Made by a program: the position numbers. From assembly GCF_045037415.1 (NCBI RefSeq), contig NZ_CP173438.1: 64,000 nucleotides of DNA; one strand, given 5' to 3'. Below are positions 33,001 to 36,000 of the stretch, piece after piece. The DNA comes from Escherichia coli. Lineage in GTDB: Bacteria > Pseudomonadota > Gammaproteobacteria > Enterobacterales > Enterobacteriaceae. The stretch's first letter is position 1. Each line of letters starts with the position of its first letter.

Positions 33001-36000
33001 CGGCGCGTTTTATTCACTGGTGATTAATTTCCAGATCCCTCATTTGCATCAACAAGTCTTGAAAGCGGCCCCCATTGTCGCCCAGCCGACGCCAATGGAC
33101 GCGGTGTTTAAATTCGACCCCCTCTCTGCTGGTGGCACCGCTATTTTTATTGCGGCGATTATCTCTATCTTCATCCTCGGCGTGGGGATCAAGAAAGGTA
33201 TTGGCGTCTTTGCCGAAACGCTAATTAGTCTGAAGTGGCCGATACTGTCGATTGGCATGGTGCTGGCATTTGCCTTCGTCACCAACTATTCCGGTATGTC
33301 CACCACGCTGGCGCTGGTACTGGCTGGTACAGGCGTGATGTTCCCATTCTTCTCACCGTTTCTCGGCTGGCTGGGCGTATTCCTTACCGGCTCGGACACT
33401 TCTTCAAACGCCCTGTTTGGTTCACTGCAATCGACCACGGCGCAGCAAATCAACGTCTCTGACACCCTGCTGGTGGCAGCAAACACCAGCGGCGGCGTAA
33501 CTGGCAAGATGATCTCCCCGCAATCTATCGCCGTGGCCTGCGCCGCGACGGGCATGGTGGGTCGAGAATCTGAACTGTTCCGCTACACCGTGAAGCACAG
33601 TCTGATTTTTGCCAGCGTTATCGGCATTATCACGCTGTTGCAGGCGTATGTGTTTACCGGGATGTTAGTTTCGTAAGTCAATAAAGCCGGATGATCGTTA
33701 ATATCATCCGGCTTCGTTGTGCACAGAAAACCCCCAGCTAGGCTGTAATGCCGATCAGTTAAGGATCAGTTGACCGATCCAGTGGCTGTGTAAGAATCCG
33801 GAAACGCTCACTTGTTTCCGGATTTTTTTATGCACATTGGACAGGCTCTTGATCTGGTATCCCGTTACGATTCTCTGCGTAACCCACTGACTTCTCTGGG
33901 GGATTACCTCGACCCCGAACACATCTCTCGTTGCCTTGCCGAATCAGGTACTGTAACGCTACGCAAGCGCCGTCTTCCCCTCGAAATGATGGTCTGGTGT
34001 ATTGTTGGCATGGCGCTTGAGCGTAAAGAACCTCTTCACCAGATTGTGAATCGCCTGGACATCATGCTGCCGGGCAATCGCCCCTTCGTTGCCCCCAGTG
34101 CCGTTATTCAGGCCCGCCAGCGCCTGGGAAGTGAGGCTGTCCGCCGCGTGTTCACGAAAACAGCGCAGCTCTGGCATAACGCCACGCCGCATCCGCACTG
34201 GTGCGGCCTGACCCTGCTGGCCATCGATGGTGTGTTCTGGCGCACACCGGATACACCAGAGAACGATGCAGCCTTCCCCCGCCAGACACATGCCGGGAAC
34301 CCGGCGCTCTACCCGCAGGTCAAAATGGTCTGCCAGATGGAACTGACCAGCCATCTGCTGACGGCTGCAGCCTTCGGCACGATGAAGAACAGCGAAAATG
34401 AGCTTGCTGAGCAACTTATAGAACAAACCGGCGATAACACTCTGACGTTAATGGATAAAGGTTATTACTCACTGGGACTGTTAAATGCCTGGAGCCTGGC
34501 GGGAGAACACCGCCACTGGATGATACCTCTCAGAAAGGGAGCGCAATATGAAGAGATCAGAAAACTGGGTAAAGGCGATCATCTGGTGAAGCTGAAAACC
34601 AGCCCGCAGGCACGAAAAAAGTGGCCGGGACTGGGAAATGAAGTGACAGCCCGCCTGCTGACCGTGACGCGCAAAGGAAAAGTCTGCCATCTGCTGACGT
34701 CGATGACGGACGCCATGCGCTTCCCCGGAGGAGAAATGGCGGAACTGTACAGTCATCGCTGGGAAATCGAACTGGGATACAGGGAGATAAAACAGACGAT
34801 GCAACTGAGCAGGCTGACGCTGAGAAGTAAAAAACCGGAGCTTGTGGAGCAAGAGCTGTGGGGTGTCTTACTGGCTTATAATCTGGTGAGATATCAGATG
34901 ATTAAAATGGCGGAACATCTGAAAGGTTACTGGCCGAATCAACTGAGTTTCTCAGAATCATGCGGAATGGTGATGAGAATGCTGATGACATTGCAGGGCG
35001 CTTCACCGGGACGTATACCGGAGCTGATGCGCGATCTTGCAAGTATGGGACAACTTGTGAAATTACAGACAAGAAGGGAAAGGGCCTTCCCGAGAGTGGT
35101 AAAGGAGAGGCCTGGAAATACCCCACAGCCCCGAAAAAGAGCCAGTCAGTTGCTTAACTGACTGGCATTACAGCTAGGCTGGGGGTTCCGGAAAGCTTTC
35201 AGCTTTGAGCCAGTTATTAAAACCCCTTTTGATTTGTTAAAACACCTTGCGGTCTGGCAACTGCAAGTGTCAAACAAGAAATCAAAAGGGGGTCCCAATG
35301 GGGAACGAAAAGAGCTTAGCGCACACCCGATGGAACGCGCGTGGTACAGGGAATGGACGCCGGGCTTTATCAAAAACTGAAACCGTTGGTCTGTGCGCTG
35401 CCGATGGCCCGCCAGCAAATCAACATCAATACATTAGATGTCACGCAAAGTGTGATTCTTGAGGCGCTGTTTGACCCGTGGTTAAGCCCTGTTCAGGCGC
35501 GGGCGTTATTACAACAACGTCCGGCGAAGGGCTGGGAAGATGTCGATCAGTTTCTTGCACAGCCGCTACTTGCAGACGTCGATGAGCGTACTAAAAAACA
35601 GCTAAAAACCGTCCTGAGCGTGGACAGCAATTACTTCTGGCTGCGTTCAGATATCACCGTGAATGAGATTGAACTGACGATGAATTCGTTAATTGTCCGC
35701 ATGGGCCCACAACACTTTTCTGTTCTCTGGCATCAGACAGGAGAAAGTGAGTGAGTTTCATGCTTGAGATTTTTTTCCCGCTTTGCGCCGCTGATCCCAT
35801 CCGTTGGCAGCGCCATACACCCGACGTGGAGCACGGTATCTGGCCTGACGTTGCTGATGAATGTCTCCAGCAATGGCTGCAAACTGATGCGATTCGACTC
35901 TACATTCCCGGCGAATGGATCAGCGTCTGGCAGGTTGAACTGCCTGATGTGCCCCGCAAGCAGATACCGACGATTCTGCCCGCCTTGCTGGAAGAAGAGC

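Follow-up and report, generated by a model that had tools for sequence, protein, structure and literature searches.

The stretch of DNA studied here, which we call the window, comprises 64,000 nucleotides of Escherichia coli contig NZ_CP173438.1 (assembly GCF_045037415.1), and it carries a copy of the insertion sequence (IS) IS4 a short distance behind glcA, the gene for glycolate permease. Read along the plus strand, the locus consists of an intact glcA, whose annotation is the same in identical strains in RefSeq, the terminator-like hairpin of glcA, a short left piece of a second transposable element known as IS200C, the IS4 copy, a longer right piece of IS200C, and finally the C-terminal fragment of gspK, which encodes a minor pseudopilin of a type II secretion system (T2SS). 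Strain Ecol_AZ146 has the same sequence as the window over 8 kb, and copies 100% identical to its IS4 are found at the same locus in other strains. We propose that three events followed by decay produced this arrangement, namely the arrival of IS200C, the insertion of IS4 into the palindrome at the left end of IS200C, and a deletion of 15.3 kb, and we assign a probability of about 0.85 to this account as a whole. The coordinates of the features are collected in Table 1.

The element is IS4 (IS4 family, IS4 subgroup), as the initial annotation had named it, and exact copies of an 11-bp target-site duplication stand on both sides of it. Its identity follows from the near-complete match to the IS4 of K-12 MG1655 (1426 bp), from which it departs at 8 of 1426 positions through seven substitutions and the loss of one base pair, together with the score of its product against the IS4 transposase model of NCBIfam (NF033592, 303 bits versus a cutoff of 115). 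The termini, TAATGCCGATCAGTTAAGG... and ...CTTAACTGACTGGCATTA, agree with the ends of the K-12 copy, and the terminal inverted repeats, which are imperfect, about 18 bp long and begin TAATGCC, pair at 16 of 18 positions (33746-33763 with 35153-35170). The palindromic target lengthens these repeats to 35 nt with 86% complementarity (33729-33763 with 35153-35187). Terminator-like hairpins followed by T-runs are also present at both ends of IS4, one on the plus strand just 5' of the start of the transposase gene insG (33792-33827) and the other on the minus strand, overlapping the right inverted repeat (35141-35166); presumably they protect insG against transcription entering from outside.

There are exactly two copies of the 11-mer CAGCTAGGCTG in the window, each immediately adjoining one terminus of IS4, and none was found in 100 dinucleotide-preserving shuffles. 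One could suppose that the repeat is fortuitous and that the element arrived by a route other than transposition into the site. No match is expected in the window against the two observed, these lie exactly at the termini, the length falls within the 11-14 bp of all other IS4 copies surveyed, and the uninterrupted site exists in other strains. On the shuffle test and the empty sites elsewhere we reject this explanation, the probability of which is negligible, and retain transposition of IS4 into the site.

Table 1. Features of the glcA-IS4-gspK region, in coordinates of the 64,000-nt window.
Feature	Position	Strand	Basis or remark
glcA (glycolate permease), intact, 560 aa	31994-33676	+	NCBIfam NF007249, 1276 bits versus cutoff 1121
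glcA terminator-like hairpin, AAGCCGGATGAT-cgttaat-ATCATCCGGCTT	33684-33714	+	12-bp stem, -13.0 kcal/mol, z = -7.8
IS200C remnant, left 30 nt, GTTGTGCACAGAAAACCCCCAGCTAGGCTG, with left half of split palindrome	33716-33745	+	K-12 versus RM14723
Target-site duplication CAGCTAGGCTG, left copy, 11 bp	33735-33745		Repeat search and shuffles
IS4, 1425 bp	33746-35170	+	Alignment to K-12 IS4
insG transposase reading frame, 443 aa, likely pseudogene	33830-35161	+	Translation, comparison with K-12 InsG (442 aa)
Frameshift site, CC run where K-12 IS4 has CCC	35111-35112	+	Pairwise alignment
Target-site duplication CAGCTAGGCTG, right copy, 11 bp	35171-35181		Repeat search and shuffles
IS200C remnant, right part (palindrome right half, tnpA 5' untranslated region, first 13 tnpA codons)	35171-35336	+	Collinear with RM14723 IS200C
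Stem-loop of tnpA 5' untranslated region sequestering the ribosome-binding site	35223-35291		Inverted-repeat search
tnpA, first 13 codons	35298-35336		
Deletion junction, IS200C nt 185 / gspK	35336-35337		blastn and junction sequences
gspK', C-terminal fragment of type II secretion minor pseudopilin	35337-35754	+	NF037980, profile positions 189-305 only

Removal of IS4 and of one copy of the repeat restores CCCCCAGCTAGGCTGGGGG, and the junction after excision reads AAAACCCCCAGCTAGGCTGGGGGTT / ...CACAGAAAACCCCCAGCTAGGCTGGGGGTTCCGG.... Folded as single-stranded DNA, the reconstituted site forms a 10-bp stem with a 3-nt loop (-11.7 kcal/mol, z = -3.7, equalled by 0 of 200 shuffles), and the centre of the duplication (CAGC-TAG-GCTG) coincides exactly with the dyad of this palindrome. 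Each half left after the insertion folds into a stem of 4 bp, with energies of -2.2 and -2.7 kcal/mol that do not surpass those of shuffled sequence. The uninterrupted site is found directly after glcA in strain RM14723, at least eight complete genomes among the matches listed have glcA followed by an uninterrupted IS200C, and the same site recurs in thousands of IS200C copies elsewhere. Both the exact flanking repeats and the reconstituted site on which the initial annotation had relied are thus borne out.

The same annotation had placed the palindrome in a hairpin downstream of glcA, and here the palindromic nature of the target stands while its membership in glcA does not, as the palindrome belongs to the left-end terminator of IS200C. 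When RM14723 is compared with the empty site of K-12, a 712-bp insertion appears after the glcA hairpin, starting GTTGTGCACAGAAAACCCCCAGCTAGGCTGGGGG and ending ...CCTCCGGCTATGCCGGAGGATATTT; RefSeq labels it IS200C, and comparison of the filled with the empty site reveals no target duplication. The size (about 707-712 bp) and the lack of inverted repeats and of a duplication expected of this IS200/IS605 element are thus seen in the intact RM14723 copy. The target palindrome is nt 16-34 of this copy, the ATG of tnpA is at nt 147, and other IS200C copies open with the same sequence behind unrelated flanks. In Salmonella, nt 12-34 of IS200 form a bidirectional rho-independent terminator that shields tnpA from outside transcription, and this terminator is followed by a stem-loop sequestering the ribosome-binding site (PMC4513863). 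The older version of the locus, in which an intact and probably active IS4 sits in a palindromic hairpin of glcA such as its terminator, draws on a real duplication and a real palindrome 59 nt beyond the glcA stop codon, and on a transposase reading frame that is long and uninterrupted. K-12, however, where neither IS occupies the site, keeps the glcA terminator and continues directly into the glcA-yghJ spacer without the palindrome, which comes only with the 712-bp IS200C and also stands at the start of IS200C copies at unrelated loci. The supposed activity of the element is weighed below together with its transposase, and taken as a whole this version is highly improbable; we place the palindrome in IS200C.

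The IS200C copies examined all begin TTGTGCACAG right after a host hairpin and/or T-run (GGCTTC/G, CCCGTTTTT/, GGGGTTTT/ and CACCTTTTTTG/, where the slash marks the junction; positions 33710-33716 in the window). IS200C seems to land just behind intrinsic terminators, and a 2026 preprint that describes terminators upstream of IS200/IS605 elements agrees with these flanks. On the other side of glcA, the glcB-glcA spacer of RM14723 contains the small RNA C0719 of Rfam on the minus strand (RF00117, 297 bits; extracted stretch 2348-2569), and the equivalent of this spacer in the window lies at about 31640-31993.

IS200C is present in the window as a 185-nt stump, and the initial annotation had overlooked both this stump and its joining to a truncated gspK by the 15.3-kb deletion. 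The stump has the left-end palindrome, the stem-loop of the 5' untranslated region and the region of the IS200 antisense RNA art200/STnc490 (Rfam RF01405, 120.5 bits at 35165-35288 in the window and 146 bits on intact IS200C), and it follows IS200C for 155 nt past the duplication up to 35336, after which the C-terminal part of gspK takes over. The complete tnpA, coding for a Y1 HUH transposase of about 152 aa, and the right-end hairpin are missing; 13 codons are left, the 3' 527 nt are deleted, and the remnant is non-functional. Relative to RM14723, 15,291 bp are absent, comprising the rest of IS200C, sslE, pppA, gspS2, gspC to gspJ, and the 5' part of gspK. The deletion junction is inside IS200C, 166 nt to the right of the IS4 end, and shows no microhomology, and therefore IS4 is not the obvious maker of the deletion; a deletion made by an end of IS4 was considered and rejected on these grounds. 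In identical strains the RefSeq annotation pipeline PGAP describes the gspK fragment as "incomplete; missing N-terminus". The T2SS-beta/sslE locus as a whole is degraded at 35337-37466, with sslE to gspJ deleted and gspK truncated. In the window gspL consists of two reading frames (35751-36362 and 36335-36928) and is "frameshifted" according to PGAP in identical strains, and in the remainder of T2SS-beta only gspM/yghD (36930-37466) looks intact.

In the 5,426 complete E. coli genomes searched, IS4 occupies 5,498 places, and the junction series of IS4, the IS200 stump and gspK' was found in 170 of these genomes, among them CFT073 and strains of the ST131 type. Two negative results weigh against the three-event account. 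The exact empty site, made up of the glcA flank, one repeat, the IS200 stump and gspK', was covered to at least 80% by 0 of the 5,426 complete genomes, and no IS4 was seen in a full-length IS200C at glcA. No junction of the IS200 stump with gspK' was found without IS4, and the 15.3-kb deletion may therefore have preceded or followed the arrival of IS4.

The initial annotation took the transposase to be intact at 442 aa and the element to be probably active, and neither claim survives comparison with related proteins. The reading frame has 443 codons for amino acids, and the loss of one C at the CC run puts the last 15 codons out of frame, so that the protein departs from K-12 InsG from residue 429 onwards and the window copy has no full-length in-frame transposase. 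Among ten relatives of 67-91% identity, against which the reading frame of the window copy is shifted, P413, K430 and Y431 are near-invariant, and all three are missing from the window copy, which carries L31H and P413Q at conserved positions. PGAP labels the identical copies (Ecol_AZ146) and the CFT073 copy as "frameshifted" pseudogenes. The CFT073 copy has the same 1-bp deletion without L31H or P413Q, and the frameshift is therefore the older lesion; non-synonymous changes that come after a frameshift are the pattern expected of a decaying gene. The exact 443-aa protein was found in 1,661 blocks of a public assembly collection, of which the 25 longest carrying contigs were read, and in 25 of 25 the variant stands directly behind glcA, with no second location. 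It occurs mostly on contigs of 50 kb to 1 Mb and the K-12 variant mostly on contigs below 10 kb, and these observations suggest that the 443-aa variant is present as a single copy per genome.

Several points weigh against inactivity. The DDE/YREK catalytic core of the window insG is intact, with Y307, R310, E314 and K321 readable in the translation as the Y(2)R(3)E(6)K motif that enters the definition of the IS4 family (PMC2266710), and the Pfam domains Nterm_IS4 and DDE_Tnp_1 are found on a near-identical protein. Residues after 432 are variable among the relatives, two of which naturally end in the same ...ASQLLN frame as the window copy. Even an intact IS4 rarely transposes, with 8 events recorded in a K-12 mutation-accumulation study (PMC5009759), and the lack of daughter copies is therefore weak evidence of inactivity. 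Judged from its sequence, the IS4 of the window would most likely be an immobile relic that has lost transposition, and a copy that is "probably active" appears the less likely reading.

The left end of IS200 has been entered by IS4 more than once. Junction searches turned up seven loci at which IS4 occupies the identical position in an IS200 copy and has made the same 11-bp duplication: glcA (the locus in the window), wzzB-hisIE, a site next to hypT in which the IS200 is of a diverged subtype, an Rpn/IS66 island, hflC-yjeT, and, with IS4 inverted, ecnB-sugE and mlaA-fadL. Pairwise differences among these IS4 copies amount to 0-16 nt, one copy is identical to that of K-12, and one IS4 variant occurs in two IS200 subtypes (5 of 150 nt different) in opposite orientations; the seven loci therefore represent separate transposition events. 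A genome of about 5 Mb contains at most about 36 IS200 copies, and insertion at random would practically never give this recurrence. A single IS200::IS4 composite could instead have spread among the loci, either as a 2.1-kb unit moved by the TnpA of IS200 or through recombination or gene conversion between IS200 copies, and such a history would agree with the same relative orientation at five of the seven loci, the shared duplication at all of them, and the near-identity of the IS200 5' regions among six. Both orientations of IS4 occur, however, and the divergence of the IS4 copies and the sharing of one variant by two subtypes in opposite orientations speak equally against descent from one composite. 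Moreover, IS4 splits the left-end hairpin that an IS200-type TnpA would need, to judge by the IS200/IS605 mechanism (PMC3201880), the stretch of IS200 homology left of IS4 (about 19-30 nt) is too short for efficient recombination, and IS4 sites outside IS200 obey the same target rule. Spread of a composite is thus very unlikely, and repeated insertion is preferred.

The right-end hairpin of IS200C (CCTCCGGCTATGCCGGAGG) has no correctly spaced T-run, and a search in both orientations found no IS4 in it. Matches of high coverage in that search were set aside, as they represent the reverse nesting, in which IS200C is inserted in IS4. Examples are strain 2017C-4173W12, with the interrupted IS4 in fiu (extracted stretch 2502-4638), and the ST131 isolate 86, near iroB (extracted stretch 2466-3574). 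In these nests IS200C sits in the T-run just 3' of an IS4 terminal hairpin, as ...GTTTCCGGATTTTT/IS200C/ATTATGCAC or, on the other strand, as ...GACTGGCTCTTT/IS200C/ATTCGGGG. Nests of the second type occur in 144 genomes, Nissle 1917 and ST131 among them, and probably account for the second IS4 place in ST131-type genomes. At the hypT locus of CPEC24103, an ISEcp1-blaCMY-2 unit lies about 55 nt into an IS200 that already holds IS4 (extracted stretch 5152-9322), making a three-level nest that adjoins an IS100/IS66 region.

The target rule of IS4 was examined at 20 independent sites outside IS200, taken from five genomes, for which the empty sites were rebuilt and compared with 5,000 random window positions. 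The palindrome scorer accepted perfect stems with loops of at most 8 nt and so undercounts hairpins with long loops or bulges (sites L015, L017, L021 and L026). At 17 of the 20 sites and at 7.8% of controls, a run of three or more A lies on the upstream side of the duplication and a run of three or more T on its downstream side, and the inner edges of the two runs are 18-21 nt apart in 16 of the 17 sites, the exception being L034, where the scorer chose an A-run beside the centre. A perfect stem of 5 bp or more with the duplication at its centre occurred at 9 of the 20 sites versus 2.3% of controls, four more sites have imperfect, bulged or long-loop stems, and altogether 9-13 of the 20 are GC-rich palindromes resembling terminators. 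Many can be recognised as bidirectional terminators that stand right behind genes such as eno, rpoD and adhE; AAAAATGC-CAGCCTTCGGGCTG-GCATTTTTT exemplifies the type.

The consensus was re-derived from sequence in the present analysis. When the IS200 site is added to the 20, giving 42 half-sites, A is found at positions -14, -13, -12, -11 and -10 from the centre in 33, 34, 40, 38 and 27 of them, and positions -9 to -3 are C-rich in the left arm, that is, G-rich in the right arm. The resulting order of A-run (-14 to -10), C-rich arm, dyad, G-rich arm and T-run (+10 to +14) has the shape of a bidirectional intrinsic terminator. The left end of IS200, AAAA-CCCCCAGC-TAG-GCTGGGGG-TT, fits this consensus fully in its left half and partly in its right half. 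At the K-12 site, IS4 is flanked by an A-run and a T-run with 20 nt between them, which fits the AAA-N20-TTT consensus that Mayaux and colleagues are said to have put forward in 1984. Insertion of IS4 into terminator-like palindromes reflects a real target preference, and the claim of the initial annotation that the element had targeted a hairpin-type site finds support in the palindromic preference of these 20 other sites. Set against this are the contribution of 10 of the 20 sites by one IS4-rich genome, the presence of TT in place of a full T-run in the right half of the IS200 site, and the fact that recognition of duplex DNA and of an extruded hairpin are not separable by sequence data.

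As to what the transposase reads, it might recognise an extruded hairpin, a cruciform or a single-stranded stem-loop in place of a symmetric duplex. The sequences of the stems differ widely between sites while their complementarity is kept (L016, L027-L031 and L035), and stems of at least 5 bp are enriched about 20-fold over the control. Yet the non-palindromic sites that are used (K-12, L018, L033 and L034) keep their A- and T-runs about 10 nt to either side, the inner arms show a strand bias of about 2:1 towards C in the left arm and G in the right that a pure readout of structure does not predict, and bidirectional terminators simply concentrate motifs of the A-run/GC/T-run type. The relatives IS10, IS50 and IS231A use duplex targets. 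We consider hairpin recognition unlikely, as the non-palindromic sites and the bias between the arms would favour readout of duplex sequence or shape.

Taken together, we lean slightly towards a broader view in which IS4 is in practice a terminator-seeking element with the left-end hairpin of IS200 as its natural hot spot, struck at the same phosphodiesters in seven or more loci, with IS200 disabled each time, while IS200C conversely lands behind the terminal hairpins of IS4, so that the two elements target each other through the hairpins that shield them from transcription. No paper on a relationship between IS4 and IS200 was found in a full-text literature search, and older literature that is not openly accessible may cover the IS4 consensus.

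The history of the locus can then be proposed as follows. IS200C, a 712-bp Y1 transposon of the single-strand "peel and paste" kind, would have landed immediately 3' of the terminator hairpin of glcA. IS4, a DDE cut-and-paste element, would have integrated into the left-end palindrome of IS200C (nt 16-34), a site it probably chose because this palindrome is close to its target consensus, and strand transfers staggered by 11 bp and centred on the dyad would have left the duplication and the split hairpin. The most likely mechanism would be a two-fold symmetric transpososome reading two-fold symmetric duplex DNA, and by analogy with IS4-family transposases the two strands may be attacked about one helical turn apart by such a symmetric complex (PMC2266710). 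The insertion destroyed the left-end hairpin of IS200, the terminator shielding tnpA, and to judge by IS608-type elements the same hairpin is probably also the one recognised by TnpA. A deletion of 15.3 kb, before or after the arrival of IS4, would have removed the rest of IS200C and the genes from sslE to the 5' part of gspK. The IS4 copy would thereafter have been inherited vertically in the lineage now represented by the 170 complete genomes, gaining its C-terminal frameshift first and further non-synonymous changes later.

IS4 is a long-known element at a known type of target, its insertion at this place is already contained in annotated public genomes such as CFT073, and these results leave our knowledge of how IS4-family transposases work unchanged. 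What is mildly new is that the terminator hairpin of IS200 is a hot spot for IS4 and that IS200C inserts behind the terminal hairpins of IS4. For annotation, the "hairpin after glcA" becomes a piece of IS200C and the insG of this locus a decaying pseudogene, and the region as a whole is a graveyard in which the glcA terminator, an IS200C stump split by IS4 and a truncated gspK stand side by side, marking 170 complete E. coli genomes in which the sslE/type II secretion locus has been lost. The target rule predicts polar or read-through effects of IS4 behind genes like eno, rpoD and adhE, and it explains the repeated disabling of one mobile element by another.

Among known systems, the IS4 of K-12 (insG, b4278), the type element of its family, has the same terminal sequences and belongs to the same length class as the window copy, with 1418 of 1426 positions identical. 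Both have a single DDE/YREK transposase reading frame, and the target duplications of both amount to about one helical turn (12 bp for the K-12 copy, 11 bp for that of the window). The K-12 copy adjoins nanX, whereas the window copy lies inside IS200C beside glcA and, at 1425 bp, differs by its 1-bp deletion, L31H and P413Q. IS231A, of the same family, reportedly makes duplications of 11-12 bp in a symmetric GC-rich core with A/T tracts, and the GGG(N)5CCC target with bent A/T-rich flanks is said to have been described by Hallet and colleagues in 1994. A preferred natural target of it is likewise said to lie in another mobile element, at the ends of Tn4430; the polarity of its core would differ from that of IS4, which is C-rich and then G-rich, and the host and the target element differ. 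The published map of Salmonella IS200 (PMC4513863) shows the palindrome, the stem-loop of the 5' untranslated region and the start of tnpA in the same order as in IS200C; in the window, the left-end hairpin is split by IS4 and the element is cut after codon 13 of tnpA. Other insertion sequences that target palindromes include IS1397/ISKpn1, ISPpu9/10 and ISRm22, which enter repetitive extragenic palindromic (REP) sequences, and 3 of the 11 copies of the E. coli IS4 in Shigella flexneri lie near REPs (PMC1525189). Like IS4, these elements insert in short, GC-rich extragenic palindromes and have a high fraction of their copies there (PMC1525189), although the targets of IS4 are terminator-like hairpins with A- and T-runs, unlike the REP families entered by IS1397/ISKpn1, ISPpu9/10 and ISRm22.

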